DNA of 64,000 bases, taken from Candidatus Moraniibacteriota bacterium. Its GTDB lineage: Bacteria > Patescibacteriota > Minisyncoccia > Moranbacterales > UBA1568. Made by a program: the position numbers and the translations under genes. Positions 22,901 through 63,100 of this stretch are shown here, one piece after another; positions within the stretch are counted from its first letter, which is position 1; every line of letters starts with the position of its first letter. The notes beneath the pieces are model-generated. The model was not told the origin of the DNA. It worked only from the letters and a program-made list of their open reading frames with translations, and ran no database searches. The stretch is from positions 1,056,942 through 1,120,941 of the forward strand of contig CP064975.1 in the NCBI GenBank assembly GCA_016699425.1, written 5' to 3'.

Positions 22901-23656
22901 TTAACGAGGGGTAATAATCGGCGCTTTCTGATGGGTAAAAATCCATTTTTGCTGAAGCCAGGCCAGGAGCGTTGAAACGAACCAATAGAGCGAGAGAGCA
23001 GCTGGAAACTGGAAACTGAAGAAAAATACCAGTGCCGGACCGAGATACAACATCTGTTTCCCCATTATAGCAGCCATGTCGGGCATGTCGTTACCTTCCT
23101 TGGCCTCTTTTTTCACCGTCAAGGCAGTGGTCTGAGGCAAAATCATCTTGGTTTGGAAGTACTGAGCCAAGGCGGCCAGCGCGCCGAGCACCGGACTGGC
23201 CTTCACCATATCCAAAAACCCGAAGGCAATATGCTTGATCTCCCCTGGATTGGGCACAAAAGAGTACACATCGGCCCCATTGACCACGAGTCCATTGGAA
23301 TTAATACCGATGATAATCCGATAGAAAGTGATGAAAAACACGAGTTGGATAATGAGGGGAAGACAGCCAGCAAAGGGATTAACCTTATTTTCCTTATAAC
23401 AAGCCATAATCGCCTTCGTCTGTTCTGCCTTGTCTGATTTGTACTTCTCTTGAATCGCCTTCAGTTTCGGCTGAATCTCTTGCATCCGCTTCTGTTGCTC
23501 GATCTGCATCCGAGAAAGTGAGAAAAAAGCCGCCTTGATAAGGATAGTACTCAATACAATCGCAATTCCGAAGTCTTGAATAGGCAAGCCGGCATAGAAA
23601 AAAATCACCGCATTATATAGGGGTTGATAGATAACGATGTGGAAGATGTCTGCCAT
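22901..23656 (-). CDS. yidC: membrane protein insertase YidC, short form (251 aa)
   Basis: YidC/Oxa1 core helices (…CLPLIIQLVFF…). Conserved order rpmH-rnpA-yidC-jag. Confidence 0.85.
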   Translation of the reverse strand: MADIFHIVIYQPLYNAVIFFYAGLPIQDFGIAIVLSTILIKAAFFSLSRMQIEQQKRMQEIQPKLKAIQEKYKSDKAEQTKAIMACYKENKVNPFAGCLPLIIQLVFFITFYRIIIGINSNGLVVNGADVYSFVPNPGEIKHIAFGFLDMVKASPVLGALAALAQYFQTKMILPQTTALTVKKEAKEGNDMPDMAAIMGKQMLYLGPALVFFFSFQFPAALSLYWFVSTLLAWLQQKWIFTHQKAPIITPR

Positions 23657-23658
23657 AG

Positions 23659-24006
23659 CTATTTTTTCTCTTTATTAAGCCTTTCTACTAAGCTCTGAAG
23701 CTCTTTTTTCAACTGTGCATACTTCACCGACCCTAAAAATGGCTTATTGAAGAGGATGACGATATCGGTCGCTTTCGGCAAAAGCGGTGTCAACTCCCTC
23801 ATTATGGCACTTCCTTTCCGCTTCAGGAAATTCCGTGTTGCTGACCGAGGAAAGACCTTTTGCTTAAAGGCAAAGCCGACTCGGGCTTCAGTCAGAACTG
23901 TCGGACGAAAAAAAAGGCCGATTTCTGAACCAAAAATAGCCTTTCTTGAGCGAAAAACGGCCTCAAAACCGCCCTTCCCTCGCAAACGAAGGCGTTTTGG
24001 AAGCAT
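23659..24006 (-). CDS. rnpA: ribonuclease P protein component
   Basis: Basic ~115-aa protein with RnpA-like GFAFKQKV...RN..KR signature. Lies between rpmH and yidC. Confidence 0.8.
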   Translation of the reverse strand: MLPKRLRLRGKGGFEAVFRSRKAIFGSEIGLFFRPTVLTEARVGFAFKQKVFPRSATRNFLKRKGSAIMRELTPLLPKATDIVILFNKPFLGSVKYAQLKKELQSLVERLNKEKK

Positions 24007-24009
24007 AGC

Positions 24010-24150
24010 CTAAACAGACAACTTCTTCCGTCCTTGGCGCCGACGGCGCGTTATAACCGCTTGGCCGCCCTTTTCACTCATGCGTTTCAGAAAACCGTGA
24101 CGACGAGCGCGGCGGCGTTTTTTCGGCTGATAGGTGCGTTTTGTAGCCAT
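24010..24150 (-). CDS. rpmH: 50S ribosomal protein L34
   Basis: [46 protein letters not shown]. The ORF-track start at 24192 is a spurious upstream extension. Confidence 0.85.
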
Positions 24151-24234
24151 AGGATAGAAAAAATATGTGTAGTCCAATTTTATTTTAAACAAGGGAAAAA
24201 GTCAACCTGGCTTATCCATACACGTTAGTAACCT

Positions 24235-24345
24235 AGGCCCTTGGAAATTCATTGGAAAAGTCGTGGACTTCTTTTATCCGGATTGATTATTCACAGCTTC
24301 TCCACAATTTATGCACGTTCGACCATCGATCGTGAACCTCCGGCA
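24235..24345. promoter_or_regulatory. DnaA-box cluster upstream of dnaA (oriC / dnaA promoter region)
   Basis: CTTATCCATAC, TTATCCGGA, TTATTCACA and TTCTCCACA are 0-1 mismatch matches to TTATCCACA. Confidence 0.6.
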
Positions 24346-24363
24346 TGATATAATCCGGTTTAC

Positions 24364-25809
24364 TTGCAACCCACCACCATGACAAATGAGGATCTTTGGA
24401 AAGCTGCTCTAGGACAGATTGAACTTTCCCTTTCAAAAGCCAATTTTATTACCTGGTTTAAAAATACGTCTATTCTTTCGATGGAAAATGGGCGCGTTGT
24501 GATTGGCGTTCCGAATGGATTTGCAAAAGAGTGGCTTGAAAATAAGTATAATCTATACATCATAAAGGCTCTGAAAAGCCTCGCTCCGGAAATCCAGGAT
24601 ATAAAGTGCTCCATTGCACCCAATAGCCATCGAAAAAATGGACCAGAAACCTTTGTTAAGTCGATGGATGGAGCACGCCCCTCTTCCATTGTTCAGCCGG
24701 AGAGCCCGCTCCCAAGCGGCTTTTCGAGAAAAAGAATCGCAGAAAAACCCGTATTGACCGCACCAAGCGGAGAAATCTTCCGCAGCAACCTTAACACTCG
24801 TTACACATTCGAGAATTTCATTGTCGCAGAGAATAATGAGTTGGCTCGAGCGGCCTGCTTTGCTATTTCTCAAAACTTGGGACACTTGTATAACCCACTC
24901 TTCATCTACGGAGGGGTCGGCCTAGGGAAAACCCATCTTCTCCAAGCCCTAGGGAATGAAATCGCCGCTAAACAACCGGAAAAAAGAGTGAAATACATCA
25001 CTTCGGAACGCTTTACGAGCGAGCTGGTCGAATCCATCAAGAATCAGACGGTCGATCAGTTCAAAGCCGCCTATGAACACATCGACCTTCTCATCATCGA
25101 CGATGTCCAATTCCTGTCTGGCCGAGAGAAAACCCAGAGTGAATTCTTCCACATTTTCAATGCCCTGTATCAGCTCAATAAGCAAATAGTCATTTCCAGC
25201 GACCGGACACCGAAGGCAATACCCACCCTTGAGGAGCGTCTCCGTTCCCGGTTCGAAGGCGGAATGATTGCCGATATCAGCCGACCGAGCCTCGAGACAC
25301 GTGCGGCCATCTTGGAAACAAAGGCTCAAGAGAAGGGTGTTATCATCGATTCCGCCTCAATCCACTTCATCGCAGAGCACGTGAAGGAAAATGTCCGAGA
25401 ACTCGAGGGTGCCCTCGCTCGCGTGAGTGCCTACAGTGAATTCCAAAAAGTCCCGATTGGTCTTTCTTTGGTTCAAAAAGCACTTTCAGATATGCTCGTC
25501 CAAACGAAAAAATCAGTTAAATTGGATGATATTGTTAAAATAGTGAGTGATTTTTATGGTGTACCTGTCGAAGAAATGGTGAAAAAGGGACGGAAGAAGG
25601 AAGTGGCTCACCCACGGCAAGTCGCTATGTATCTCCTTCGCACTGAACTCGATACGCCTTTTTCCACAATCGGGGACTTCTTCGGCGGGCGGGATCATAC
25701 TACTGTTCTCCATGCTGTAGACAAAATCACAAAAAATCGTGAATCGACGCTCCGGATACGAGAAGAGATTGCTTCTTTAAAAGAAAAACTTCAGGTCGCG
25801 CCTGTATAA
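24364..25809 (+). CDS. dnaA: chromosomal replication initiator DnaA
   Basis: Walker A GVGLGKTHLL, the AAA+ core, and a C-terminal DNA-binding domain (VAMYLLRTELDTPFSTIGDFFGGRDHTTVLHA). Confidence 0.95.
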   Translation: MQPTTMTNEDLWKAALGQIELSLSKANFITWFKNTSILSMENGRVVIGVPNGFAKEWLENKYNLYIIKALKSLAPEIQDIKCSIAPNSHRKNGPETFVKSMDGARPSSIVQPESPLPSGFSRKRIAEKPVLTAPSGEIFRSNLNTRYTFENFIVAENNELARAACFAISQNLGHLYNPLFIYGGVGLGKTHLLQALGNEIAAKQPEKRVKYITSERFTSELVESIKNQTVDQFKAAYEHIDLLIIDDVQFLSGREKTQSEFFHIFNALYQLNKQIVISSDRTPKAIPTLEERLRSRFEGGMIADISRPSLETRAAILETKAQEKGVIIDSASIHFIAEHVKENVRELEGALARVSAYSEFQKVPIGLSLVQKALSDMLVQTKKSVKLDDIVKIVSDFYGVPVEEMVKKGRKKEVAHPRQVAMYLLRTELDTPFSTIGDFFGGRDHTTVLHAVDKITKNRESTLRIREEIASLKEKLQVAPV

Positions 25810-26022
25810 ACCCTGGATAACGCTGTATTTCTCTCACCGACTCTGTTGATAAATAAATATTCTAGTGGATTACGTAGTGAAAACGAAACAAACCCTACAT
25901 TTTCATCCACATACTTTCTCACAATATTTCGCTTATCCAACACTTTCTATTCACTTTCCCACATATACAGAGCCGTAATAACAACAATACTCTATATAAA
26001 TCTAATTTAAAGATTACCTGCT
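25810..26022. promoter_or_regulatory. dnaA-dnaN intergenic region with DnaA boxes and an AT-rich unwinding element (probable oriC)
   Basis: CTGGATAAC, GTTGATAAA, TTCATCCACA and CTTATCCAAC boxes, followed by an AT-rich tract CTATATAAATCTAATTTAAAG. Confidence 0.6.
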
Positions 26023-27153
26023 ATGAAACTCAGCTGCACTCAAGAAAATCTCCGTGTCGCTCTCTCTTCCCTCGAACGTGTTGTTGGGAAACAAAGTACC
26101 TTGCCGATACTCAGTAATATCCTTTTGGAAACAGAGAGGGGGCAACTACGGCTTTCAGCGACCAATCTAGAAATTGGAGTTATTACTTCGATTGGAGCAA
26201 AGATTGAAGCAGAAGGGAAGATTACACTCCCAGCAAAATTACTAATAAATTTCATCCAGAATCTCGCTTTAGACCAAGTGGTGAGTATTGAGCAGATTGG
26301 GACGCAGGTTGTGCTGGAAAGTGGAAATTATACCGTTAAAATCAATGGTTTAGACGGGAAGGACTTTCCGATTATCCCAGAGCGGACAGAAGGAAGAATT
26401 TTTTCAATCGAGGCAGATGCTTTACGTCAGGGTCTTCAAAAGACGCTGTTCTGTGTTTCTTTAAATGAAAGTCGGGCAGAACTTACTGGGGTTCTTTTAG
26501 GATTTAGGGATGGGGTGTTGATTCTTACCGCAACCGATAGTTTTCGATTGGCTGAATGGCGGATGAAGGAAAAAATCGAGGGTGATATCAACTCCCTCGA
26601 ATCGAGCCAAGCATCAGTCATTATCCCGGCCTATACGCTTCAAGAAGTGCTTCGGGTCATGTCTCAGAATGCCGGTCGTGTGAGTGTGGCACTCGAGGAG
26701 AATCAGATATTTTTTGAAATCGGGAGTACTCGGATTGTTTCCCGTCTCATTAATGGGAAGTTTCCCGAATATCAAGCCATTATTCCAAAACAATTTTCAA
26801 CTGAGATTGTTCTTCAGCAGGATGAATTCCAGCGGGCATTGAAGATCGCCACATCCTTTTCAGCATACAGTTCTGGGGAGGTTGTATTTCGGTTGAATCC
26901 TGAGGAAAGTAGGCTCGAAATCCAATCCCAATCCCAGGGTATTGGTGAACAAGTTGCTAAGATCCCGTATGAAGGCGAGCTTTTGGAGCCACTACAAATC
27001 GTCTTCAATCCGCGCTATATTCTCGAAGGAGCGTCCATCCTTACGGGAAGCCAGATACGGATCGCTTTGAATTCTTCCTCGACGCCCGTCCGAATCTCTT
27101 CGGATATCGAACAGGAGGGGTATATTTACATCGTCATGCCGATCAGGAAATGA
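26023..27153 (+). CDS. dnaN: DNA polymerase III beta sliding clamp
   Basis: Three-domain clamp pattern. Position after dnaA. Confidence 0.9.
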   Translation: MKLSCTQENLRVALSSLERVVGKQSTLPILSNILLETERGQLRLSATNLEIGVITSIGAKIEAEGKITLPAKLLINFIQNLALDQVVSIEQIGTQVVLESGNYTVKINGLDGKDFPIIPERTEGRIFSIEADALRQGLQKTLFCVSLNESRAELTGVLLGFRDGVLILTATDSFRLAEWRMKEKIEGDINSLESSQASVIIPAYTLQEVLRVMSQNAGRVSVALEENQIFFEIGSTRIVSRLINGKFPEYQAIIPKQFSTEIVLQQDEFQRALKIATSFSAYSSGEVVFRLNPEESRLEIQSQSQGIGEQVAKIPYEGELLEPLQIVFNPRYILEGASILTGSQIRIALNSSSTPVRISSDIEQEGYIYIVMPIRK

Positions 27154-35959: not shown

Positions 35960-36700
35960 CTACGACTCTTGCTTCAGGATATGCCGGAAGCGGAAGAGCT
36001 CCACCAGTCGCAGCCCTGACCATTTCCCCAAGCCGATGTTGATGAGGAAGGTCAGAGCAATCGCCCACGGATACTGGAGGAAGAAATCCCGGAGTGCCGG
36101 CCAGCCGATGACGAAGTAACCAACAATGGAGATGACGAGTGTTTCCCCAGCGAGAAAGAGCGCTATCTTCGTTCCTTGTTCGATCTGGGTTGCGATGAAT
36201 TTTTCAGCCAGTGTGATGAGGATGAGGAGTGGAAAGATGTCTACAGCCGCAATCCCAGTGCGCTGGAGGGTCGCCCCGAAAGCGAGGATACCAAGGACGG
36301 TGAGCGAGATGATAGAGAGGGTGATGGCGACCCGCGGCAGGTAGAGGAGACGGAAGGAACGCAAGATGTAGCGTGCGAGCATCCCCATGCCGATGACCGC
36401 AAAGAAAATAGCGACGCCGTACTTCAGGCCCTTTTCCCCGAAGGCGAGAAAGGCGAAGGTGATGATGGATGGCGTATAGATGCCGAAGGCCTTGATGCCG
36501 ACGATTTGCCGGAAAAAGGCCACCAGGGTCGCGATGACCGGGAGCATGAGGAGGAGGTACACCGTTTCGATGGGCACTCCGGCTTCGACGAAATAGTTGA
36601 TGATCGGATGATAGTTCATAGCTGTATTATACTCTTCGTTTCGCGAATGACGCATGATGGATGTGGCACAGCGCAATGGCGAGCGCGTCCGCGACATCAT
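35960..36700 (-). CDS. 7-TM membrane protein of the 7TM-inactive-transglutaminase-associated type
   Basis: Seven hydrophobic helices. Position next to the RimK-related ligase matches the known three-gene cassette. The start is probably internal (MNYHPIINYF). Confidence 0.5.
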   Translation of the reverse strand: MMSRTRSPLRCATSIMRHSRNEEYNTAMNYHPIINYFVEAGVPIETVYLLLMLPVIATLVAFFRQIVGIKAFGIYTPSIITFAFLAFGEKGLKYGVAIFFAVIGMGMLARYILRSFRLLYLPRVAITLSIISLTVLGILAFGATLQRTGIAAVDIFPLLILITLAEKFIATQIEQGTKIALFLAGETLVISIVGYFVIGWPALRDFFLQYPWAIALTFLINIGLGKWSGLRLVELFRFRHILKQES

Positions 36701-37115
36701 CGGGCTTCGGGATGGCTTTCAGGTGAAGAATCTCCTTGGCCATACGTTGCACCTGCTGTTTATCCGCCTTGCCATACCCCGTGAGTGCCTGCTTCACCTG
36801 GAGCGGCGTGTAACCAGCGATAGTAAGCCCAAAATCGGCTAAAGTCAAGAGGAGTGCACCGCGTGACTGAGCGACCGAGATCGCTGTTTTCTGGTTATTG
36901 AAGAAGAAAAGTTCCTCCATCGCGGCCGTATCGGGTTGGTACTGCTTCACAATTACGGCGACATCATCGCGGATTTCCTGTAACCGCTTCTGGAGAGGTA
37001 GGTCTTTGCTCGTCGAAATATGCCCATAGGCCAGCGGCTCGGTCTTCCCCTCGATGTGCTCGAGTACAGCCCACCCTACCGTCGCCGTGCCAGGATCGAT
37101 GCCGAGGATTTTCAT
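36627..37115 (-). CDS. ruvC: Holliday junction resolvase RuvC
   Basis: MKILGIDPGTATVGWAVLE N-terminus with catalytic Asp. The ORF-track start at 37199 is an upstream extension. Confidence 0.85.
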   Translation of the reverse strand: MKILGIDPGTATVGWAVLEHIEGKTEPLAYGHISTSKDLPLQKRLQEIRDDVAVIVKQYQPDTAAMEELFFFNNQKTAISVAQSRGALLLTLADFGLTIAGYTPLQVKQALTGYGKADKQQVQRMAKEILHLKAIPKPDDVADALAIALCHIHHASFAKRRV

Positions 37116-37122
37116 ACAGTTT

Positions 37123-37908
37123 CTAGTTAGTTTCTTGAGTTTCGAGCGGCTTCGAGATCTGCCAGAGTATTTGGAATACAGTCCGAAGTGAGGCAGCATA
37201 GCTCGGGCTGGAGAACTGGAAAAAGAAGTCTTCTTTTTGGGCGGACCAAAAAAGGACGTTGTCGTCGACGATGGTATACATCACCCCCCAGTCTATGGAA
37301 GCGGGTAATACGCGAACAGTACGATTGTATCGGATGTTCCCAGTCTCGCTGTAGTCCTTATTTCTTTGTAATGTCGGCCTATCAGAGGAGGGGAACAGGG
37401 CTTCGACATGGATATTCTTGGCAACGCGGGCTTCCCAGAGTCGGCGGAGGTCGCGTTCGGTGAAGAGCGCGTAAAGCAGTTCGTGGTTACCCAGGGTGAG
37501 CACCGTCTTTCCCTTCGATTCCAAAATGAGATCGGCGAGTTTCTTGGCACCCTCCCTCCCAGCATAGAGCCGGACCGGATTGCGCAGCACGTCACCCTTT
37601 TTAATCGAGGCAAGATCCTCGACAAGCTCACAGGCCACCAGTTCTTTCTGTTTGATCAGGGCTTGTAAGCGCTCGGGAGCCGTGGCAGCAAGTCGCTTCT
37701 TTGCTCCCTTCACTACGGTTTCAATAAGCCCGAGGCTTTCCAGAGTCACGGCGTTTTCATAGATGGTCGGGCGCTGAATGTGAGTATCACGGAAGATATC
37801 CAGGACGCTGCAGATCCCATGTTTTTGGATCGATATATAAATCTGACCCTGCTTTTCGGTGAGCCCGAGAGCCATCAATTTCTCGAGCATTTGTGCGTCC
37901 TTTGTCAT
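37123..37908 (-). CDS. TrmB-like wHTH transcriptional regulator (paralogue 1 of 4)
   Basis: N-terminal LxxLGLTEKQGQIYISIQKHG winged-helix region like the other three paralogues. C-terminal TrmB-like effector domain. Confidence 0.65.
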   Translation of the reverse strand: MTKDAQMLEKLMALGLTEKQGQIYISIQKHGICSVLDIFRDTHIQRPTIYENAVTLESLGLIETVVKGAKKRLAATAPERLQALIKQKELVACELVEDLASIKKGDVLRNPVRLYAGREGAKKLADLILESKGKTVLTLGNHELLYALFTERDLRRLWEARVAKNIHVEALFPSSDRPTLQRNKDYSETGNIRYNRTVRVLPASIDWGVMYTIVDDNVLFWSAQKEDFFFQFSSPSYAASLRTVFQILWQISKPLETQETN

Positions 37909-38070
37909 CTCCTAATTATGTATAATAAAAACGACAAATATATTTTATACATAACACTTATTCTAATATAAAGCAATAATATATAGATTAAATACTATAC
38001 AGAAATGATACTCATCATTGACTAAGAGACCATTTTCGACTATGCTTGACTGTTCTTTAATAACCTATTG
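37909..38070. promoter_or_regulatory. AT-rich divergent leader/promoter region of TrmB paralogue 1
   Basis: Strongly AT-rich. Contains TTGACT/TTGACA-like hexamers and the AAATGATAC motif shared with the leader at 40399-40560. Confidence 0.45.
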
Positions 38071-38700
38071 TTGAGCATTTGCTCACCGCCCCCGGACGTT
38101 TTCCGAGGTAATCATGAGGAGTGTATTGTGGACACGTTGATTGGGGGCCGAGGCCGAGAAGTATTCTCGGCAATAAAGGAAATTGAACGTGGCGAAGAAA
38201 GCCGAAGGTGCGTAGCTTTTTCGGAAGGCTGTAGCCAGGGGTACAATCTCTGGTGGCTCATACCGGAAGGCCCAGCGGAACTCGGGTGGGTTCGTATGAC
38301 ATTTCCTGTGTTCAGATCCTTGATGGAGGATATCCTGGACAATGGAGAAATGATCGCTGTGGCTGTTTCTGAATCAGGGGACCAAGAGTACTCTGGCGCG
38401 CGGGGCTGGCACCATGCCAAGGGCGTCCCGAAGCTTCCGTATCTCACCCAGTGGGTGATTATACGTGGGCAGGTTTTCGGAAATGCTGGCTATAAGTTTG
38501 ACAGCTTTACCGGAGAGCACGGATCGCTTCAGAGGACCCTCAATCATCCGATTGACGCCAGTCAGTCGCTCCGCTACTCGGTTCTTCCGAAGAAAATGAT
38601 ACAACGGATGATATTCGGTTCTCGTTGTAAACGGCTGTGGCGCTGGCTCCTCACCAGGACCGAGAGCGGAAGCGGGCGGCAATGCGGCAGTGTTGAGTAA
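38068..38700 (+). CDS. hypothetical protein (210 aa; start uncertain)
   Basis: ORF only. Confidence 0.4.
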   Translation: MLSICSPPPDVFRGNHEECIVDTLIGGRGREVFSAIKEIERGEESRRCVAFSEGCSQGYNLWWLIPEGPAELGWVRMTFPVFRSLMEDILDNGEMIAVAVSESGDQEYSGARGWHHAKGVPKLPYLTQWVIIRGQVFGNAGYKFDSFTGEHGSLQRTLNHPIDASQSLRYSVLPKKMIQRMIFGSRCKRLWRWLLTRTESGSGRQCGSVE

Positions 38701-38761
38701 CCAGCCCTTGGGTATTTCACTCACACCGTGACCGGTGTTTCAACTCGAAGAGGAGAATGTA

Positions 38762-39289
38762 ATGGCTACGAAATCATTTCGCAAGTACATGGATACAAGC
38801 AAGTATCCCAAAGACAATCGTCCGTCCTACGTAGCACTCGAGGGGTTGTGCAGGGTCGCAAAGTACTTTCGTGAAACAGCGCGGGCGGAAAGGGTTTTTA
38901 TGAGGGAGGGAATCATGGGCATCGTGGAGAATCCGCGGTATGTTCGTGGTTTCGTAAGTACGGATCAATTTTCCGCTGCCGTAAGGCAACAAGTGGAAAC
39001 CCATTTCTGCCTTCTCCGTATTGCCCGAATTAGCGACCTGGCTCGATGTTTCCCTTATCTGTCCTTCGGATGCGTTTACTTGGAGTCCATTATATCGGAC
39101 TACCGTCGACGCAACGTGTTGCAAGATCTACTGACCGTAGATTTGATGGTGAAGGATGTACGAGGTGATGGCTTGCTCGAGGGGGAGGTGAGTAGGGTGG
39201 CAGAGGCCTTATGGGAAGCCCTCCAGTCAAGCTCAGCAAAGGGGTGTCCCGGATGTGGCCCGAACGGGTATTATTGCAGCTGTATGTAG
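38762..39289 (+). CDS. hypothetical protein with C-terminal Cys cluster (KGCPGCGPNGYYCSCM)
   Basis: ATG at 38762 preceded by GAGGAGAA. Confidence 0.45.
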   Translation: MATKSFRKYMDTSKYPKDNRPSYVALEGLCRVAKYFRETARAERVFMREGIMGIVENPRYVRGFVSTDQFSAAVRQQVETHFCLLRIARISDLARCFPYLSFGCVYLESIISDYRRRNVLQDLLTVDLMVKDVRGDGLLEGEVSRVAEALWEALQSSSAKGCPGCGPNGYYCSCM

Positions 39290-39313
39290 TCCCCAATCAG
39301 AAAGGAGAACGTC

Positions 39314-39481
39314 ATGGAACTATGGCAATGGGCGATCACTGCATGGGCTGCGTTAAAGATTTTTCCTATGCTAGTCGTCGCGGTACTGATCCTGTGTATT
39401 GTTTTGATTCTCGCCGCGGGTTGGCTTGGTGAAGTGTACGGTGATTGGAAATGGAAAAGGAATAATCGTTTGAAAAAATGA
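39314..39481 (+). CDS. unlisted small hydrophobic membrane peptide (55 aa: MELWQWAITAWAALKIFPMLVVAVLILCIVLILAAGWLGEVYGDWKWKRNNRLKK)
   Basis: AGGAGA 6 nt upstream of the ATG. Single TM helix. Followed by an intrinsic terminator. Below the 60-aa cutoff of the ORF track. Confidence 0.55.
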   Translation: MELWQWAITAWAALKIFPMLVVAVLILCIVLILAAGWLGEVYGDWKWKRNNRLKK

Positions 39482-39493
39482 AAAAACACTAAG

Positions 39494-39526
39494 CGGGTTC
39501 CGAGGCAGACCCGAACAAAATGCCTC
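39494..39526. repeat. copy 1 of the 33-bp motif GGGTTCCGAGGCAGACCCGAACA-AA-GCCTCA
   Basis: Near-identical to 41240-41272. Both copies lie between a plus-strand gene stop and a terminator hairpin. Confidence 0.6.
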
Positions 39527-39531
39527 ATTCA

Positions 39532-39570
39532 CCCCAAGCAGACATTACGTCGCTTGGGGATTATTTTTTT
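39532..39570 (+). terminator. rho-independent terminator
   Basis: CCCCAAGC/GCTTGGGG stem followed by ATTATTTTTTT. Confidence 0.6.
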
Positions 39571-39582
39571 ATACGCAATGTC

Positions 39583-40398
39583 TCATTTTCCTTGGGAGAG
39601 CAATTCATGCTGCGCAAGCACTTCTTTAAGTGATAGCGTAAGACTTGATTCCCAGACTAAATCGAATATTTGCCGTAGTGTTGAAGCAAATTCTTTACTC
39701 TCTACGATGACGGATTGCGTCGCACCGATCAGGTTGATGCAGACAAAATCGTCCGTCCCACACACGGTGACATTGCCGCTGAACTTATCCAGTGGAAAGA
39801 AACGAACATTTTTGAAATGCCCGTCACCGAATTCGTCAAAGAGCTGGTGCATGGAGTCATCCCAGGTTGTGATGCCGCGAAGCGCGATCCCCCGCTTCGA
39901 GAAGTCCGCATTCCATTCCATGAAGAGGTTGTATAGCTCACTGCTGGCCTGTTTTGCGCTACCAAAGAAGCCAAACACCTCTTTCCCGCTCAATTCATCG
40001 GCGCGGTACCAGAGTGCCTGTCGCATGCCGGCGACACCATCATAGTGCATCGTGCGTACCTTGCTGATGTCGAGGCGTTTGTAGAGCGCTTTCAGATCAG
40101 GCAATATGAGTTCTGCGGCGAGGAGCTTCCGGCGAGCTTCTGAGAAGAATTCTTCCGGTGGGCGCGCCGCAAACAACTGCCCACGCTCACGAGGAATCTC
40201 TACTACCAGGCCTTTTTCGATCAGTTGTCCGAGTATGACGTAAGTAGTCGGCTTCTTTAGGCCTGATTTTCCAGCGATGGCATAGGCCGAAGCGCGCCCG
40301 GCTTCCAGAAGGGCGACATAGACCCGAGCCTCCTTTTCATTGAGTCCGAGCAGCATCAATTTCTTCACAATTTCATCCATGACCCGAGCATAACGCAA
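39583..40398 (-). CDS. TrmB-like wHTH transcriptional regulator (paralogue 2)
   Basis: LMLLGLNEKEARVYVALLEAGRASAYAIAGKSGLKKPTTYVILGQLIEKGLV winged helix. Confidence 0.65.
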   Translation of the reverse strand: MRYARVMDEIVKKLMLLGLNEKEARVYVALLEAGRASAYAIAGKSGLKKPTTYVILGQLIEKGLVVEIPRERGQLFAARPPEEFFSEARRKLLAAELILPDLKALYKRLDISKVRTMHYDGVAGMRQALWYRADELSGKEVFGFFGSAKQASSELYNLFMEWNADFSKRGIALRGITTWDDSMHQLFDEFGDGHFKNVRFFPLDKFSGNVTVCGTDDFVCINLIGATQSVIVESKEFASTLRQIFDLVWESSLTLSLKEVLAQHELLSQGK

Positions 40399-40560
40399 TC
40401 CTTCTTAATAGTCAATAAAATTGATGAACAATATATAAATGTTATAAATATGCATAAATAAAGCAAATAAATGATACATGTTTGAAATATAAACATCCAA
40501 ACTATTGACTAGTATTCAATAATCTGCTATACTCCGGTGTCAGGTTGAGAAACGGATTAA
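40399..40560. promoter_or_regulatory. AT-rich leader of TrmB paralogue 2, carrying a consensus sigma70 promoter on the plus strand
   Basis: TTGACT-17 bp-TATACT at about 40506-40534. Also carries AATATGCATAAATAA, which is shared with the leader at 55560-55690. Confidence 0.5.
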
Positions 40561-40626
40561 AGATCCAGCGACTCATCGGACAAGAGTTCCTTAAGAAATC
40601 CGCCAAATCTGGCAACCGCTGAGGTA

Positions 40627-41187
40627 TTGGAGAACGAAATGGAAAAGAGCGACTTCCTGATTGCAGTGTCCAAGGTAGGCCGTAATAGCAATTGCTACGG
40701 AAAAGGTGGCTATATTGTCACTGTTGCACACAGGAATCTCCCCTCTGTCTTTCTCGCCATAGTCGGCTCAGTCGCCTGGATCGAGTACCCATACGATCGT
40801 CGGAACGTATGGAGCGGAAAGGCAACCCCTCCGATACTTGTCGTGCATGACGGCAAGGGCGAGGGGAGGGGAGGCGAGCACGAAGTTCGTGATAGCGGCA
40901 AAAAGGGCGGCGAGTGGAGAGTGAAGAAAACCACTCGTCTTACCGAAGATGATCCGGACAAGTTCCCATACGGGGAGTTCGCAGAATTTTCGGAAGAGAA
41001 GACCTGGGAAATCTTTGAGCCAGATTTCTACCCTTCTGGCGCTGATGCATTCGCTGACTCTTCTGTGGTGGTTGGTTACGATGCCATCAAGAAGAGAAAG
41101 GAAGAAATTCTTGCGCAAACAATTAATTTCGCAATTGCCAAGGCGCAAGAGGTTATTTCGACCTTTAGCAAAATGCAGATGAGCTAG
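40627..41187 (+). CDS. hypothetical protein (186 aa)
   Basis: ORF only. Followed by the R2 motif and a terminator hairpin. Confidence 0.45.
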   Translation: MENEMEKSDFLIAVSKVGRNSNCYGKGGYIVTVAHRNLPSVFLAIVGSVAWIEYPYDRRNVWSGKATPPILVVHDGKGEGRGGEHEVRDSGKKGGEWRVKKTTRLTEDDPDKFPYGEFAEFSEEKTWEIFEPDFYPSGADAFADSSVVVGYDAIKKRKEEILAQTINFAIAKAQEVISTFSKMQMS

Positions 41188-41239
41188 TGGCAAGGTCCAC
41201 GATAAACTCCTTCGCGATTCTCCTCCGCGTGTAGATGAG

Positions 41240-41272
41240 ATGGGTTCCGAGGCAGACCCGAACATAAAGCCT
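41240..41272. repeat. copy 2 of the 33-bp GGGTTCCGAGGCAGACCCGAAC motif
   Basis: See 39494-39526. Followed by an AGCGTCG/CGACGCT hairpin and a T-rich tract. Confidence 0.6.
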
Positions 41273-41375
41273 CACAAAAAAGCGTCGTGGGAAATCCTGC
41301 GACGCTTCTTCTTATTCTCCCCACCACTGACTTCTAATCCCTACTCACTACCCACTACAAGCTGTCAGCTACCAG

Positions 41376-42092
41376 CTAGTTCAAATTATTCCAGACCGCT
41401 TGGACGTCTTGGTGGTCCTCGAGCTCTTCGAGGAAGGCACCAAAAGTCTTTTGGGTTTCGGTGTCGAGCGTGACGGTTTGTGTCGGTTTCCAGCCGAGCT
41501 GAGCGGCCGTTGGAGTGAGCTTTTGGTTTTCGAAAAAGGCCTGGACCGCCTGGAGCTTGTCGACTTCGGTGTAGACGGTGAAGATATTATCGCTCACAGC
41601 GTAGTCCTGTGCACCAGATTCGATCGCGAGCTCCTCGAGCTTTTCGAGCGGAGTTTCGCCGATCTCGAACGCGAGGAGGCCGACGCGCTGGAACAGGAAG
41701 GCGACGGAGCCGGAATTGCCGAGCTTGCCGCCCTTTTTCAGGCAGAGCGAGCGGAGTTCACTCACGGTACGGTTGCGGTTGTCGGTCGTAGTTTCGATGA
41801 GAAGTGCGACTTGGCCGGGGCCGAAGCCCTCGTACATGATCGACTCGATTTTTTCTCCGACGAGCTCGCCGGTACCGCGCAAGATAGCGCGTTCGATTCG
41901 GTCTTTCGGCATGTTCAGCGCGCGGGCTTCAGTGATGGCGATCTTCAGGAGATAGTTCGAGTCCGGATTGCCGCCGCCGCGTTCGGCCGCGAGGATGATG
42001 TTGCGTCCCGCCTTAGTGAAGATGGCGGCACGTTTGGCATCATTCACGCCTTTGGCACGGTGAGTAGTGGCCCAGTGGGAATGTCCGGACAT
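41376..42092 (-). CDS. yebC: YebC/PmpR-family DNA-binding regulatory protein
   Basis: MSGHSHWATTHRAKGVNDAKRAAIFTKAGRNIILAAERGGGNPDSN N-terminus. The upstream extension in the ORF track was discarded. Confidence 0.85.
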   Translation of the reverse strand: MSGHSHWATTHRAKGVNDAKRAAIFTKAGRNIILAAERGGGNPDSNYLLKIAITEARALNMPKDRIERAILRGTGELVGEKIESIMYEGFGPGQVALLIETTTDNRNRTVSELRSLCLKKGGKLGNSGSVAFLFQRVGLLAFEIGETPLEKLEELAIESGAQDYAVSDNIFTVYTEVDKLQAVQAFFENQKLTPTAAQLGWKPTQTVTLDTETQKTFGAFLEELEDHQDVQAVWNNLN

Positions 42093-42209
42093 AGCGAACG
42101 AGCGGATAGGGTTTAGGGAGTAGCTTCTTAGCTTAAGTACGAAATGGAAAATTGGCAAGCACTGAAGGTGTAGATGAGCAGTTTGCCACAATCTGCCACC
42201 AAAAACCTT

Positions 42210-54808: not shown

Positions 54809-55559
54809 GGCCTCCTTCCCACACGCAATGCCCGGCGTATTGGATAGATGAATGATGGTGCGGGTACACCAGTTCTCAGAAAGCTTGATGACAAAAACCA
54901 TCCAGCTTCCAATTGAACAAGTTGTTAAGGTTCTCCTTGAACGGGGCGTGGCTCGCTTCTGCACACTTTCGGCGTGTCCGTTTCCTCCGTTGCTTTCCAA
55001 GGACCGTTATGCCTACGAGGCTATCAATTGATCGCCTCATAGGCATTCACTCCTTGCGAGTCAGGGTAGTATTCGGATCGACGCGTCGGGGCTACCGTCT
55101 CTCGTCCGCTTTGCAGCGCACTGGTAGTGGACCGACACTTTGATCACAGACCGCTCAGAATATGGTTAGTATTCCGCCTTGGCAGCCGAGTGAAGGGCTG
55201 CTAGATGTGACTCGTTTGTCTCTCTCCGCGTTGGGAGTATGAAATGTACTGTATCTCTCTCGAAGCTATCTTTTGTGGCTTCCGAGAAAGAGGATGGGGG
55301 AGAATCTCGCGAAACTCGAGGGTCTCGAGGTCCCCGCCTGCGACGCTGTTGCGTAGCACTTCGGGCAGGTCTCTCTACTCTCCCGAGTGTTGTCGGTCGA
55401 GCAGGATTCGCGTCACCGTTCTCCCGCATGTCTCTCTCTAAGAACGCTGATCGGTAAGGTACTAAGGTGGCTGTCTCACGGCCGGTCCCCGTCTACATCG
55501 CCTCGCGAAGTATGCCGGGCAGGTCTCTCGTCTCTCTTTTTCTATTGAAGTCACAGTAT

Positions 55560-55690
55560 AGCACCGTTTTACAACAGTGTCAATGATACGTATCAGAAAT
55601 ATGAAAAAAAGCTTATATAATATAAAAAATATGCATAAATAAGCATATAATATGTCACAATATATTGACAATATATAAAATGAGGAGTAG
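55560..55690. promoter_or_regulatory. AT-rich leader/promoter of TrmB paralogue 3
   Basis: AATATGCATAAATAA and ATATTGACA motifs are shared with the other TrmB leaders. Confidence 0.45.
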
Positions 55691-56489
55691 AATGAAAGGA
55701 AATAAGATGAAATATATGGAGCTTCTCTACACAGAAAATCTGAAGCAGGTTGGACTGTCCGAGGCGCAAGCCCTCGTATTTGAGGCTCTATTAAAGGAAA
55801 AAGAGATAAAGGCAGGGAAGCTCGCCAAGTACCTGCCTTTGAAGCGGGGTTTGATTTACAAATCACTCGACGATCTGGTCGCTCTGGGGCTGACCGAAAA
55901 GCAAGAAGCCCCCGGGAAAGTCGCACTCTACCGGGCGAAGCACCCGACCGCACTCCGGTCCGTCGTGGAGACAAAAGAGCGGGCGATCCGGGATGCCGAA
56001 CGAGCGATCGAGGGGCTCTTGCCGGTGTTGTCATCGGATTTCAATCTCCACTCGAGCCAGCCGGGAGTGCTCGTCTATGAGGGGGAGGTGGGAGTGGAGA
56101 AGGTGCTCGACGATTCACTTCAAGCCAAGGAAGTGATCTATTCCTATGTCGATGTGGAAGCGGTGGAGAAGAATATCGGCGAAATCAATGCTCGCTATAT
56201 GCGGAAGCGGGAGAAGCTCGATATTTATAAGAAGCTGCTCGTCCCAGATACGCCGTTTATTCGCAGTCTCTACACCGAAGAAAGAAGCCTCGTGACCGAA
56301 GTCCGGGCCATTCCCATGAGTGCGACGCCCTTCGAGGTATCGATGCAGATTTACGATGGCAAGGTCTCGTACCTGACACTCGCGCATGACCGCAAGCTCG
56401 GTGTCATCATCGAAAACCCCGCGATCTATCAGATGCACAAGTATCTCTTCGAGACGCTCTACGATCGAGCAGAAGTCCTGGCCCGCTAG
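55665..56489 (+). CDS. TrmB-like wHTH transcriptional regulator (paralogue 3)
   Basis: LSEAQALVFEALLKEKEIKAGKLAKYLPLKRGLIYKSLDDLVALGL winged helix. Confidence 0.65.
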   Translation: MTIYKMRSRMKGNKMKYMELLYTENLKQVGLSEAQALVFEALLKEKEIKAGKLAKYLPLKRGLIYKSLDDLVALGLTEKQEAPGKVALYRAKHPTALRSVVETKERAIRDAERAIEGLLPVLSSDFNLHSSQPGVLVYEGEVGVEKVLDDSLQAKEVIYSYVDVEAVEKNIGEINARYMRKREKLDIYKKLLVPDTPFIRSLYTEERSLVTEVRAIPMSATPFEVSMQIYDGKVSYLTLAHDRKLGVIIENPAIYQMHKYLFETLYDRAEVLAR

Positions 56490-59038: not shown

Positions 59039-59053
59039 GTTCGTATTACTTGT

Positions 59054-62000
59054 TTATGCTGCCGCATTATTGTTCGTCGGCCGCATCTCATACACCATAT
59101 ACCACTTCTTGCTCGTCGGGTCTTTGAAATACCGCGTCAGGACAAAGCCGCTGTTGCAGGGTGCGAATGAATGTTCCTTCGGGTCCTTGGCTGTCTCTAC
59201 TATCGCTGTACCGATTTTCCCCAGCGGAGCCAGCTTCACGATCTCCTCTTGAGTCATCGCTTTGGTCTTGAAGTACTCCTCATTCCGTACGTCATCGCGG
59301 ATGATATCCAGAATCAGATCGCCCTGATCATCCCAGGTACGGACGCCGATGAAACCCTGCTCGATGTAGCGGGCGCTGACGGACTTTTGTGCCACGCAGT
59401 CTGCTCCGAGGATGCTGTCGGAAGCCTCTCGTTTGAACGCCTCATCAATCATCGCCTCACCGATGTAGGCTTTCTGGAAGCGCGGATCGAGTGTCACCGC
59501 CGAGACATATTTCTGCCCTGGAGCAGTTTCGGTGAAGCAGAGGAAGCCGACAATCTCACCTTTGTGACGGAGCGTAGTGAAGCGACTCCCTTCATCGGCG
59601 AGATGAGTATCGAAGTCTTTGGCGAGCTTCTTTTGAGTCTCGGTCGGGTAGCCTGTCATGCTCTCAAGATAGAGGGAGCGCATGCGTTTCGCTTCAGCTG
59701 GTATGAGGCCGCGGCCGGCTTCGCTGGTGATCGCATTATCTCGGAAGTCCTCGAGGGTTATTTCTTCGTCATTATCTTTCAGGGTTTTGAAAGTAGCTTT
59801 GAAGAGCTCGATGTCGGCACGGATCGCGTCGAGTCCAGCTTTCAATTTTTCGATTTCTTCCTGCTCTACTTTTCGGTACTCGTTCAACCAATACCCGTCG
59901 CTGTTTTCATCGAATGATCGATCACCAACCCCGAGCCCATCGAAAGATTCCCTTTGAGAAACCAAGTTTCTGAGTACTTGATGAGATTCGGCGAGAAGAT
60001 TGTTCGCTTTACTGATCAGGGATTGTCGGACTTGTAAGGCTGTTGTTGTATCACGTGTGTCTCCGGAGAGATCGTCGAGGATTGCTTCAACGGCGTCGGA
60101 ACTTTCCACGAGCTCCGCGTATTTCTGAAAAATAGTATCAGCTACTTCGGGAAGCTGACTCCCGATGGCGAGTATTTTTTCACCCATCTCACTCCCAAAC
60201 TCCTCCAGAGCAAGGAACGCCTTGATGCGATTGGCCCGGTGTTCTCTGCCCTCAGTCTGCTTGATGAAGTGCCCAAGCTGATCAAAACCCTCCCCGAGTT
60301 TTTTTGTCTTGAGATAGGTAATGAGGGAGAAAAACTCCCGCCGTGATATTTTGTCAAAAGTGAATCCGAGGTGTTTCTGTAGGTGGATGACTGCGTCGAA
60401 ACTTAAATTGTGCACCATGTCACGGACATCCTCCTCGGTTCGCGCAGTCTCACCGTATTCCGAGTTCATGAGGACGAGGAACTGGTTCATGTCGACAGAT
60501 TCGGCATACTGTAGTGTCTGAGTCATGTCCTTGAGGCCGTTATCGACATACCCGGACAAGGCAGAAACGAATTTGGGATCATGCGAGAGCAGGGGCGCAA
60601 TGTACTCTGAGAAGGCGACTGCTTGCTCGAAGCTGTTGGGGCAATCCTTTACGAAGCTCATAATGTCGATATCGAAGGTCTCGTACATTGTTTGCAAGTA
60701 GTATTGTTGGTTTTCAGGTAACCGGTGCCAAAAAAGAAGCATAACAGCGGCAGCGTTCTGGCTAGGGGAAAAGTTCGTGTGGTCAGAGAGGGCGTGTTTC
60801 ATACTTAAGAAATCAGCAACGAGCATCTTGTCGAAGGTCTCTTCCGTAGAATCGTCGGTCCTCAGAATATCTAGGAGACGACCAGTTGGGCTGTAGAGCC
60901 CGAGGGTATTGTGCGCCAAGTGTACGGCGGAGCTATTCAGGACGTACCTCCATTCATCGGCACCGCCTTTTCCTTCTGAGTGGGCGCGGCTGAGGAGGGG
61001 AGTGATAAGGTTGTCCTTCGTGCACTGGAGTGCGGCACTAAAGCGTCCTTTTGCGCGGAACTCTACTTCAAATAAGGCTCTGAAATAGGCTTCGTCGGTA
61101 TGGGATATGAGTTCTATCGCGCGTGACCGCGTTTCCGGATCATCGAGCATAAGCGATCGTATAAGCTCGCCTTTTTCGCTTTCTGCGAGGGTTGTGGGGG
61201 ATACGTCCAAAACATCGTCGGGCGTATATGCCATGACGAGGTTGAAGGAAAAGCCGGGGTGAACAGTATGAAGAAGCTTATCAATGGACATTGATTTCCA
61301 CTTCTCCATTTTTTCAAGAATCATGGGACTGTCTGGCTCCCCTTCGTAGTTCGTCCACATCTCTCGTAAACGCCCATGAAGTTCTTCGATGAGCCCCCAA
61401 TAGGCTTCAGAGTTTTCATGCATGAGCTGAGCTGCTGCTGCTCGGGCTTTATCAGTGTCGTAGAAAGGAGCATCGTGATCTCGTAGGAGGTTTCTACAGA
61501 AACCTATATCAACAGTCTCCAGGTTTTCAACTTCGCGCCGCCGCTCGATATATGCGGCGAGGTCAATGTACTCGGTGTCGTCTCCTGTTTCGTCCAGGAG
61601 CTTCTCGATACGTTCGAGGGGCAGGTTCACGGGAGTGGAGAGTTTGTGAACGATCTCTTTGAGAGTATTGAATGGCAAGTGCTGACTTCTCAGAGTCGCC
61701 AGTCCTTCACGGAGGACATACTCCCACCCCCTTTGCTGGATGAGTTCCTTCGCGATACGTATCCCAAGTTCGTTGTAACTGCGTGTCACTATTGCATCGA
61801 GCGCGAAATGCAGCGCTTCTTCCGGATGCGTTTCGATGACACTTTGGTAATGTTTCACTACAGCCTCCTTATCGTCGATGTGTCGATGCAGATCAAATTT
61901 ATGTGGCGAATCCTCGAACGATGTTTCCAGGCAAAACAGGTGTCGAAATCGCTGGACTGCCAAAGGGAACTCACTATGGAGCGTATCCAAAAGTGGCTCA

Positions 62001-62959: not shown

Positions 62960-63100
62960 TCTGTATCGTAACGGTGTAGTATACTCAAAAATGCTGTAAC
63001 AGTCAACAATACAAAGACAGTAAAAGTAGTAAATATACTTTACAAAAGCCATAAAGAGAGTATACTGTATGTAGTGTTGTAAAATATTGACACAGGAAAT
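62960..63100. promoter_or_regulatory. AT-rich leader/promoter of TrmB paralogue 4
   Basis: AATATTGACA and TATACT elements. AT-rich. Confidence 0.4.

Follow-up and report, generated by a model that had tools for sequence, protein, structure and literature searches.

We describe four regulatory genes, designated T1–T4, in a 64 kb stretch of DNA from Candidatus Moraniibacteriota, which is referred to below as the window. All four encode proteins with the architecture of the archaeal chromatin protein TrmBL2, and each is preceded by a short and extremely AT-rich leader. In our view, T1–T4 are rather probably autoregulated local repressors that reside on portable bidirectional promoter–operator cassettes; the bidirectional promoter of each regulator, with its built-in predicted sites, probably serves to shut off both the regulator and the variable gene that lies opposite it. 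The proteins belong to a very large and undescribed family in the ultra-small bacteria of the Patescibacteria or candidate phyla radiation (CPR). Comparisons were made with 72 loci from Patescibacteria species representatives, which were obtained from one genome scan, and with two more contigs; together with the window these amount to 1.16 Mb. Fetched contigs are labelled L001–L079, among which L075–L078 share T3 and T4 with the window and L079 shares the region of T1 and ruvC. The gene maps of the compared loci are crude maps based on the longest open reading frames (ORFs). Distant orthologues cover T2 only, and the comparisons for T1, T3 and T4 rest on the contigs of close relatives and on the family loci. 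A metagenome scan with T2 returned one locus only, and an exact look-up of its database match yielded no contig.

The initial annotation of the window had reported four paralogous TrmB-like regulators of the winged helix–turn–helix (wHTH) type, and our results agree. The gathering score of PF01978 (25.6 bits) is exceeded by T1 (26.4 bits, a marginal value), T2 (54.4 bits), T3 (41.2 bits) and T4 (55.8 bits), and the four proteins can be aligned from end to end at about 21% identity. T1 scores 191.9 bits with the hidden Markov model (HMM) of the family, and a search of the 64 kb window with this model gave no fifth copy. T1–T4 and three partner genes are found in one database record (IPJ68_05780 to IPJ68_05895). 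The coordinates proposed earlier for T1 and T4 were retained, while the starts of T2 and T3 were revised (Table 1). T2 begins at 40380 with MDEIVKK, as in the database annotation. The TTG at 55665, previously taken as the start of T3, is part of the gene's own −35 box, TTGACA; because a 1 nt indel in the relatives disrupts the frame from 55692, the start of T3 is placed at 55707 or 55716. The NCBI product of T3 has 257 residues.

T1–T4 are TrmBL2-like in architecture, but they are neither orthologues of TrmBL2 nor sugar-sensing TrmB proteins. A profile built from 45 homologues of T2 aligns with the whole of TrmBL2 (residues 12–245 against 14–261, E = 4.5e-6), the structures matched in this way being 5BOX, 5BPD and 5BQT (E about 5e-6); the same profile matches TrmB over the N-terminal 120 or so residues only (7–129). 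The AlphaFold2 model of T2, which has a predicted local distance difference test score (pLDDT) of 92.5, consists of a wHTH domain, a 27-residue helix and an α/β domain, and ends after the phospholipase D (PLD)-like domain. When this model was submitted to Foldseek, ranks 1–8 were all TrmBL2 (E of 1.7e-12 to 1.4e-11), with low global TM-scores of 0.32–0.35, and these were followed by PLD-fold proteins matched by the C-terminal domain. Identity to TrmBL2 is 17–19%. One tyrosine (Y50 of T1, Y47 of T2) is found without exception in both alignments; given the shift of +3 between the profile and TrmB (3QPH), Y47 of T2 falls on Y50, the conserved DNA-recognition tyrosine of P. furiosus TrmB (PMC4158304). 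All four proteins stay far below the NCBIfam equivalog cut-offs for TrmB, TrmBL1 and TrmBL2, and the TrmBL2 equivalog NF041141 (cut-off of 530 bits) is matched by T2 alone, with 17.5 bits. A catalytic PLD activity of the C-terminal domain was considered and rejected, as residues of the HKD type are absent from the invariant and near-invariant columns.

The same data bear on whether these proteins could be ordinary sugar-responsive TrmB regulators that control sugar transporters, which we regard as very improbable. The Pfam name of the N-terminal domain points in this direction, as does the fact that 14 of 83 divergent partners in the relatives are periplasmic binding proteins. These binding proteins, however, are of the Peripla_BP_6/ANF_receptor type and not of the sugar type, and the domain architecture contradicts such a role: the PF11495 sugar-binding domain has no match in T1–T4, which are 240–265 residues long compared with about 340 residues for the sugar-sensing TrmB and TrmBL1. 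None of the four partners in the window is a transporter.

The family comprises 20,500 clusters (50% identity) at E ≤ 1e-3 and 11,022 at E ≤ 1e-10, and the named matches come from Patescibacteria lineages throughout. Two to five family genes are held within 20 kb by 20 of the 74 sequences with matches. In full-text literature searches we found no paper that joins TrmB with CPR, Patescibacteria, Parcubacteria or Saccharibacteria; papers of 2011 and 2014 mention the occurrence of the domain in bacteria and nothing more (PMC3031468, PMC4158304). We also note that P0138, P0155, P0231 and about 20 more members are 510–1080 residues long, with 3–7 stretches that match the family profile and one N-terminal PF01978 each; these proteins apparently contain one wHTH domain and several repeats of the C-terminal domain.

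The leaders of T1, T2 and T3 contain the three lowest-GC 100 bp windows of the 64 kb (16–18% GC). The next-lowest values are 27–29%, with the T4 leader at 27%, and the mean of the whole window is 51.6%. The AT tracts themselves extend over 94–124 bp at 19–28% GC (72–81% A+T), compared with a mean of 46% and a minimum of 33.8% GC for the 26 other intergenic gaps of the window. The AT-rich leaders noted in the initial annotation are therefore real, and they are not restricted to this genome. When the lowest-GC 100 bp window of a leader was compared with the bottom 1% of all windows of its locus, 74.5% of 98 family genes fell within that 1%, as against 13.4% of 931 other genes; the figure for other divergent genes was 26.8%, in a control that still contains partners sharing family leaders. 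Family genes are divergent from their upstream neighbour in 82% of the 98 cases, with a median gap of 174 bp, and the 931 others in 36%. The AT-rich, divergent leader thus characterises the family as a whole.

The near-consensus sigma-70 elements described earlier for these leaders are likewise present, seven promoter-like sites being found across the four at a threshold of at least 9/12 matches to the consensus. Every leader in the window has an outward promoter that points away from the regulator and reads TTGAC[TA]-17-TAT[AG]CT. What had been called an AT-rich leader is a region of back-to-back divergent promoters. Family-wide, the −35 to −35 distances cluster at 83–87 bp (eight cases), 93–98 bp (25 cases) and 108–110 bp (two cases); in the window they are 94 bp for T2, 86 bp for T3 and 85 bp for T4, the last being taken from the divergent −35 to the conserved TTGACA at 63087–63092. 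The classes of about 85 and about 95 bp differ by roughly one helical turn.

The most informative element lies at the regulator's own promoter. T2-type genes are defined here as family members that reach 240 bits or more with the T2 profile; 57 of their leaders could be aligned, and these have the consensus TC[A/G]TCAAAAnTATTGACTA, with most positions 72–100% conserved. The conserved block extends from −12 to +6 around TTGAC in 57 species-level sequences whose proteins are merely 33–80% identical. It reads as a 19 bp imperfect palindrome, TCRTCA-N7-TGACTA, in which the right arm holds the regulator's own −35 hexamer, TTGACT. The cytosines at −46 and −43 from the start are 84–96% conserved. TAnnnT is found 16–18 nt past the −35 in 50 of 52 T2-type leaders, with the start codon 6–8 nt further on in 41 of those 50, and a Shine–Dalgarno (SD)-like motif is present in only 4 of the 52, for which reasons the T2-type mRNAs are predicted to be leaderless. 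The divergent −35 box forms the left arm of a second palindrome, TAGTCA-N7-TGACTA, whose geometry is again 6-7-6; the bases G, A, C, T and A of its right arm, counted at a constant distance from the divergent GTCAA, are found in 80, 63, 69, 71 and 80% of cases, respectively.

A position weight matrix (PWM) for the own-promoter site gave 111 matches of at least 10 bits in the 1.16 Mb, of which 88 are within family leaders; since the matrix was derived from these same leaders the count is partly circular, and it is the scarcity of matches elsewhere that is informative. The two best matches elsewhere likewise precede family genes. The strict palindrome GTCR-N6-8-YGAC is present in 31–35% of family leaders and in 3.4% of 524 control upstream regions. 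Furthermore, the variant of the site follows the protein subgroup: TTGACT is found in 46 of 54 T2-type cases, the left arm of this variant being TCATCA, and among the paralogues at greater distance 18 of 20 carry TTGACA, frequently in the form of the perfect palindrome TTGTCAA-N5-TTGACAA.

Some of these features would also be expected if no regulator bound at all and the leader were simply a strong promoter for leaderless mRNAs, with an extended −35 and with AT-richness contributed by facing UP elements. The A-tract immediately upstream of the −35 (CAAAAATA) resembles the proximal UP subsite of Escherichia coli promoters, leaderless transcripts are the norm in the family, and the window has consensus sigma-70 promoters in other places too, such as 8531, 24205, 43217 and 45410. 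However, these other strong promoters have neither the element nor an extreme AT tract, UP elements do not explain the conserved cytosines at −46 and −43, and the element is palindromic, is repeated in 6-7-6 geometry at the divergent promoter and is nearly restricted to family leaders. We therefore consider a promoter without a cognate regulator to be improbable.

In about one leader in three there is a further, weaker element, AAGCCAT/TAAAGC, some 36–45 nt upstream of the own −35. Both of its orientations are over-represented in the AT-rich spacer compared with shuffled sequence (z up to 7.5), and variants are found in all four leaders of the window (for example AAGCCATAA at 63055–63063).

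Within the window the sites differ from leader to leader (Table 1). T2 has the canonical arrangement, with a predicted operator TCATCA-N7-TGACTA at 40408–40428 (PWM score of 23.3 bits) and, on the other strand, a degenerate second operator, TAGTCA-N7-GGATGT (14.7 bits); its ATG lies 6 nt past the −10 box, and the mRNA is accordingly predicted to be leaderless. In T3 the palindrome TGTCA-N8-TGACA (55653–55670) spans the own −35, and this promoter with its palindrome is identical in L075 and L076. A different, perfect palindrome, TGATACGTATCA (55584–55595), abuts the divergent −35 of T3, with its centre estimated at about −41.5. The T1 leader is 100% identical in L079, and AATGAT-N4-ATCATT (38004–38019) abuts and overlaps the −35 of the T1 divergent promoter. 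Following GTCAA in the same register, 10 of 13 bases are identical between T1 and T3 (estimated P of about 0.03 after six pairs), a likeness next to the divergent −35 that is suggestive. In T4 the element GTGTTGTAAAATATTGACAC lies between the predicted own promoter and the ATG, and the relatives read GTGTC-N10-GACAC; in L075 and L076 (about 90% identity) the element and the divergent promoter are kept, but the middle of the leader, including the predicted own promoter, has diverged.

Three motifs had been listed in the initial annotation as shared between leaders. All three are present, but in tests of exact k-mers against dinucleotide shuffles only the match between T2 and T3 rises above the AT-rich background. 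This is the 16-mer TTATTTATGCATATTT, for which none of 1000 shuffles gave as good a match and which is the only significant exact motif common to leaders of the window. It is not found in the leaders of T2 orthologues, and in the leader of a T3 relative it is altered at three positions, among the few differences between the two leaders. The 16-mer was considered as an operator and, being non-random but not conserved in orthologous leaders, was not adopted; it is either not constrained or recently converted. GTATCATTT was rejected as a shared site, as it occurs at background level (P = 0.57 in shuffles). ATATTGACA, though without significance when tested as a k-mer, forms part of the TCRTCA-N7-TGACTA element and is the only one of the listed motifs that reflects a conserved cis element.

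Table 1. Features of the window discussed in the text (positions in the 64 kb stretch).
Feature	Position	Strand	Description
T1	37123–37908	−	TrmBL2-like regulator, IPJ68_05780, 261 aa; exact match QQR78548.1; alternative start 37890
T2	39583–40380	−	TrmBL2-like regulator, IPJ68_05790, 265 aa; widespread T2-type; database match 100%
T3	55707–56489	+	TrmBL2-like regulator, IPJ68_05875; start inferred from indel in relatives
T4	63101–63823	+	TrmBL2-like regulator, IPJ68_05895, 240 aa; exact match QQR78571.1
T1 AT-rich leader	37909–38017	−	109 bp, 19% GC; degenerate own-promoter element TTGTCG at 37932–37937
T1 divergent promoter	38004–38046	+	TTGACT 38018–38023, 17 nt spacer, TATGCT 38041–38046
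T2 own promoter/operator	40387–40428	−	−35 TTGACT 40415–40410, −10 TATGCT 40392–40387
16-mer TTATTTATGCATATTT	40446–40461	−	Inverted copy in T3 leader at 55627–55642; holds palindrome TATGCATA
T2 divergent promoter	40492–40533	+	TTGACT 40505–40510, 17 nt spacer, TATACT 40528–40533, extended TG
T3 divergent promoter	55555–55595	−	TTGACA 55583–55578, 17 nt spacer, TATACT 55560–55555; 11/12 matches, extended TG
T3 own promoter	55653–55693	+	TTGACA (55665–55670)-17-TAGAAT, 11/12 matches
T4 divergent promoter	62978–63006	−	TTGACT-17-TATACT; would drive c62867 and the 1166 aa and 850 aa genes
T4 own promoter	63039–63093	+	TTTACA-16-TATACT (63039–63066), then element GTGTTGTAAAATATTGACAC (63074–63093)
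c38068, T1 partner	38068–38700	+	Likely start GTG 38128 after GAGGAG; fast-evolving
c40627, T2 partner	40636–41187	+	IPJ68_05795, 182 aa, hypothetical; exact match QQR78551.1; one-member cluster
Expected T3 divergent transcript	54995–55548	−	About 550 nt, conserved, apparently non-coding; six GAGAGAC copies
T4 partner operon	56486–62867	−	c62867 (62502–62867, 121 aa), 1166 aa gene (59054–62554), 850 aa gene (56486–59038)
Strain-specific segment	38673–41370		2,698 bp; c38735, c39314, T2 with leader, c40627, both 33 nt repeats

In the mechanism that we propose, the TrmBL2-like protein, with its winged helix, long dimerisation helix and PLD-like domain, would repress from its own cassette, which consists of about 90–125 bp of 72–81% A+T DNA flanked by two near-consensus sigma-70 promoters that face away from each other. 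The −35 boxes would be covered either by one dimer per palindrome or, as with TrmBL2, by a tetramer spanning the two, and this occlusion would silence both the regulator and the opposite gene. The AT-rich spacer would provide UP-element-like DNA, easy bending or cooperative binding, and a postulated signal acting on the C-terminal domain would lift repression. T1 would additionally drive ruvC and the genes downstream of it. For palindrome binding, −35 occlusion and bridging by a tetramer we lean on the biology of TrmBL2, which represses when promoter-bound, most of its direct targets being hypothetical proteins (PMC3031468), and which forms tetramers whose wHTH domains sit in pairs in neighbouring major grooves (PMC4877046).

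Several points weigh against this interpretation. Repression is preferred to activation solely on the basis of the overlap with consensus −35 boxes. The PWM was scored on its own training leaders in a scan that covered ±10 kb around family genes, which leaves room for distant regulon members. Within the window only T2 has a canonical own operator: the T3 palindrome has an extra spacer base, the T1 version is degenerate and the T4 element lies downstream of the predicted promoter. The divergent promoters of T1 and T3 bear another palindrome (ATGAT..ATCAT in one case and TGATACGTATCA in the other). The own site of the T2-type lacks symmetry in its left arm, which reads TCATCA and not TAGTCA, the peaks at 94 and 97 bp in the −35 distances are not clean helical multiples and the AT-richness could derive largely from two facing UP elements.

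The main rival to local repression is a nucleoid-associated or xenogeneic-silencer mode of action, in which low-specificity binding to AT-rich DNA would nucleate at the regulators' own leaders and spread as filaments, leading to the silencing of AT-rich, newly acquired genes across the genome and not of a single local target. It overlaps with the local-repressor model and could coexist with it. TrmBL2, which these proteins match over their full-length architecture, is a global repressor that assembles into stiff filaments (PMC4877046, PMC3031468), and chromatin immunoprecipitation sequencing (ChIP-seq) places it in vivo at AT-rich peaks, with >75% A+T in a genome of 48% A+T (PMC11840125). Within their neighbourhoods the family leaders stand out as the DNA with the highest A+T content, and the cargo is lineage-specific and turning over. 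We know of no H-NS-type protein described for these bacteria. Against this, the presence of several paralogues per genome at about 21% identity, each with its own leader, is a better fit to specific local factors than to a single abundant architectural protein, and the conserved G/C positions, the palindromic symmetry and the subgroup-specific variants point to sequence-specific recognition. The TrmBL2 equivalog score, 17.5 bits compared with 530 bits, is also remote. We consider general silencing of this kind to be rather unlikely. A related proposal, to which we give a similarly small chance, is that the cassettes are portable silencing units in which the palindromes, which double as −35 boxes, nucleate a tetramer or filament that spreads across the extremely AT-rich spacer and keeps a very strong bidirectional promoter off. 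If this were true, any gene or structured RNA (the 550 nt T3 transcript being a candidate) that landed opposite a regulator would gain instant, tight and signal-dependent control, and the cassettes would be the main route by which the tiny genomes of Patescibacteria domesticate and exchange accessory genes.

The genes opposite the regulators are variable throughout the family. A divergent partner is present for 86 of 99 family genes (75 sequences), and 58 of the 86 partners are singletons that are unrelated to any other partner. About two thirds of the divergent partners lack a Pfam domain; the recurrent classes are the 14 Peripla_BP_6 binding proteins mentioned above and eight or nine radical-SAM proteins. 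On a rough tree of the regulators the partner classes are scattered over the clades, and sister regulators face different partners. Membrane or secreted cargo was rejected as a common theme, a TM-like segment being found in 27 of 86 partners (31%) compared with 29% of controls.

Close relatives show this exchange directly. In L075–L078, T3 and T4 are more than 90% identical to those of the window and their leaders 90–99% identical, but the opposite genes are unrelated; for those opposite T3 the window contains no homologue. The nearest orthologues of T2 (80% identity) lie in unrelated neighbourhoods and have kept the operator. L079, on the other hand, lacks the 2.7 kb segment that contains T2 and has 129 bp, including its own terminator, in its place; positions 1–1978 of L079 correspond to window 43348–41371 at 98.3% identity and positions 2108–5291 to window 38672–35486 at 96.3%, and between these flanks blastn gave no match to the window. 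Comparison of these loci shows that regulator and leader form the conserved unit, with an exchangeable gene opposite, and that whole cassettes are gained and lost between close strains. As to whether regulator and cargo move together, a question raised with the initial annotation, the segment that L079 lacks carries both T2 and its partner, and T3 and T4 are kept with different cargo.

Such turnover might be taken as the mark of mobile gene cassettes, integron-like or otherwise site-specific, or of a defence- or toxin-type island in which the regulator is a passenger. The presence or absence of the 2.7 kb segment between flanks that are 96–98% identical, the unrelated contexts of the T2 orthologues and a 33 nt repeat, followed by a terminator, at the 3′ ends of two cargo units would all be consistent with this. 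No integrase, transposase or recombinase was found in or next to the segment, however (none in 35–43 kb), and the indel junctions show no target-site duplication. Matches from PADLOC are weak and at the level of the wHTH only (CasR, Csa3 and CARF-HTH; E of 3e-5 or weaker), with none for the cargo. None of the 74 loci that had been fetched by that stage contains the 33 nt repeat, and neither the repeat nor any family member is found in 2.9 million viral contigs, the latter result also leading us to reject an association with phages. In our judgement a mobile or defence element is decidedly unlikely. The initial annotation had spoken of a modular accessory system: the layout with variable partners is real and general, but T1 forms an operon with ruvC and genes for mobility or defence are absent, so that the system is better described as a large family of self-contained autoregulated local repressor/promoter cassettes.

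The repeat itself deserves a brief description. The two copies, of sequence GGGTTCCGAGGCAGACCCGAACA(A/T)AA(T/A)GCCTCA, lie in direct orientation at 39495–39527 and 41242–41274 (+) and are identical at 31 of 33 positions; there are only two copies, none being expected by chance, and both are within the strain-specific 2.7 kb. Each is situated at the 3′ end of a plus-strand cargo unit and forms a small hairpin with a conserved loop, and 5–6 nt past each copy there is a different GC hairpin with a T-rich tail.

T1 differs from the other regulators in its surroundings. It lies 7 nt upstream of ruvC (ATG at 37115) as the lead gene of an operon, and the order T1–ruvC–7TM (7TM_transglut family)–ATP-grasp is kept in L079. 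T1 thus probably governs a housekeeping recombination gene, ruvC, and its position at the head of a conserved operon means that it is not purely accessory. Substitutions between T1 and its L079 counterpart are distributed over the codon positions as 10:8:38. In minus-strand order the gene map around the first pair runs from a gene with a bPH domain and yebC (41376–42191) through c40627 (+) to T2, and beyond T2 through c39314, c38735 and c38068 (all +) to T1, ruvC, the 7TM gene and the ATP-grasp gene. We note that yebC is situated just past the variable segment and that the yebC…T1–ruvC neighbourhood (36627–37908 and 41376–42191) is kept in L079. The second pair, T3 and T4, is 15 kb from T1 and T2; T3 (+) converges on the 850-residue gene, whose end is overlapped by the 3′ end of T3 by 4 nt.

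Opposite T3 the divergent promoter would give rise to an RNA of unusual character. About 270 nt of the expected transcript are 100% identical to L075, while the flanking genes are about 92% identical. The only ORF, c55429, was rejected as a gene, as it is disrupted by a 1 nt indel in L075 and has a codon score of −0.32, and for this reason the transcript is apparently non-coding. Its predicted fold has a minimum free energy (MFE) z-score of −4.2, and 6 of the window's 15 copies of GAGAGAC lie here, on the transcript strand. Rfam gave no match in 54900–55600, nor in 37900–41400. The sequence is known only from the close relatives L075–L078; we regard it as a candidate for a structured RNA or a long regulatory leader that precedes variable genes. 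Compared with L075–L078 the window has an extra 36 bp near the 5′ end of the transcript.

The cargo of the window was searched with Pfam, NCBIfam, PADLOC, tblastn against the 74 fetched loci and exact look-ups. No Pfam, NCBIfam or PADLOC match was obtained except for the GNAT domain in the two giant genes opposite T4, and tblastn found no relative in the 74 loci. The neighbours had been described as hypothetical and without recognisable function, which holds for most of them, ruvC beside T1 being an exception. The suggestion that all of the small cargo ORFs are spurious was rejected: c38068 shows third-position bias relative to L079 (8:7:19, with 89.5% amino-acid identity over the C-terminal 123 residues), and c40627, c62867 and c54288 are annotated and have good SD motifs. 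In c40627 GGAGA lies 5 nt before the ATG, and the codon score is 0.17. The giants of 850 and 1166 residues are paralogous over the C-terminal 450 or so residues only (47% identity), which include the GNAT domain. In L075–L078 a single 908-residue protein (L075 6471–9197) stands opposite T4, and only its C-terminal 260–390 residues are homologous; its N-terminal 530–650 residues are unrelated to the giants of the window. The first gene opposite T4 in these relatives encodes 110 residues and is unrelated to the 121-residue gene of the window. The giants give the impression of a conserved acetyltransferase module whose N-terminal extension diversifies rapidly. Lower-GC stretches on the kilobase scale were observed at 1001–3000, 23001–27000 and 57001–59000 (35–46% compared with a mean of 52%), one of them within the 850-residue gene, and may represent recent acquisitions. 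Five tRNA genes are clustered at 5492–6421 (−; Gly-GCC, Met-CAT, Phe-GAA, Val-TAC and Leu-GAG).

Comparison with known systems places the family closest to TrmBL2 (PF0496/TK0471 of the Thermococcales; 5BOX, 5BPD and 5BQT), an archaeal chromatin protein and global repressor that is the best match of T2 in both sequence profile and fold. Common to both are the order wHTH–long helix–PLD-like domain, a length of about 260 residues, the lack of a sugar-binding subdomain, and the DNA-contacting tyrosine. TrmBL2 represses at promoters, its targets are often hypothetical genes and its sites in vivo are AT-rich, as are the predicted sites here. TrmBL2 itself is a single, highly conserved and abundant protein, for which no consensus site was found in the 2011 study (PMC3031468) and only AT-rich motifs have been reported since (PMC11840125), whereas the present family is bacterial, with many divergent paralogues per genome and with conserved palindromic sites that imply specific recognition. 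With TrmB and TrmBL1 (Tgr) of the Thermococcales and Halobacteria, the family shares the N-terminal PF01978 wHTH, the dimerisation helix and the palindromic nature of the sites, which are predicted here and are known in TrmB and TrmBL1 as the TGM (TATCAC-N5-GTGATA), and autoregulation has been proposed for Tgr (PMC4158304). It differs from them in having no sugar effector domain, another operator sequence, a sigma-70 context and non-sugar partners.

The arrangement also recalls those of TetR/TetA and MarR/MarA, in which regulator and target lie back to back about one short control region, with palindromic operators over core promoter elements, and the regulator controls both genes; for T1–T4 the operators are in silico predictions and the dual control is inferred from them. 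The fold is different, one half-site of the predicted operator here coincides with the −35 hexamer and the spacer has an extreme AT content. Moreover, classical orthologous regulators keep orthologous targets, while here near-identical regulators face unrelated genes. The xenogeneic silencers H-NS, Lsr2, MvaT and Rok associate with AT-rich DNA, have AT-rich autoregulated promoters of their own and adjoin recently exchanged, lineage-specific genes. The family resembles them in its AT-rich own promoters and its lineage-specific, exchanged neighbours, but it has no homology to them and has conserved specific sites and many paralogues.

Gene regulation in CPR/Patescibacteria is barely known; these bacteria have few recognisable transcription factors and many strain-variable genes of unknown function. 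The family described here often occurs in several copies that cluster locally. Its stereotyped control region can be spotted in the bare sequence, and the family offers a concrete predicted operator for a dominant CPR regulator family. An extreme AT dip combined with TCRTCA-N7-TGACTA may serve in metagenomes as a marker of regulated accessory genes. Leaderless transcripts driven by consensus sigma-70 promoters appear to be routine in this family. Finally, the family provides a bacterial counterpart for relating the specific repressors of the TrmB type to the non-specific chromatin protein TrmBL2.

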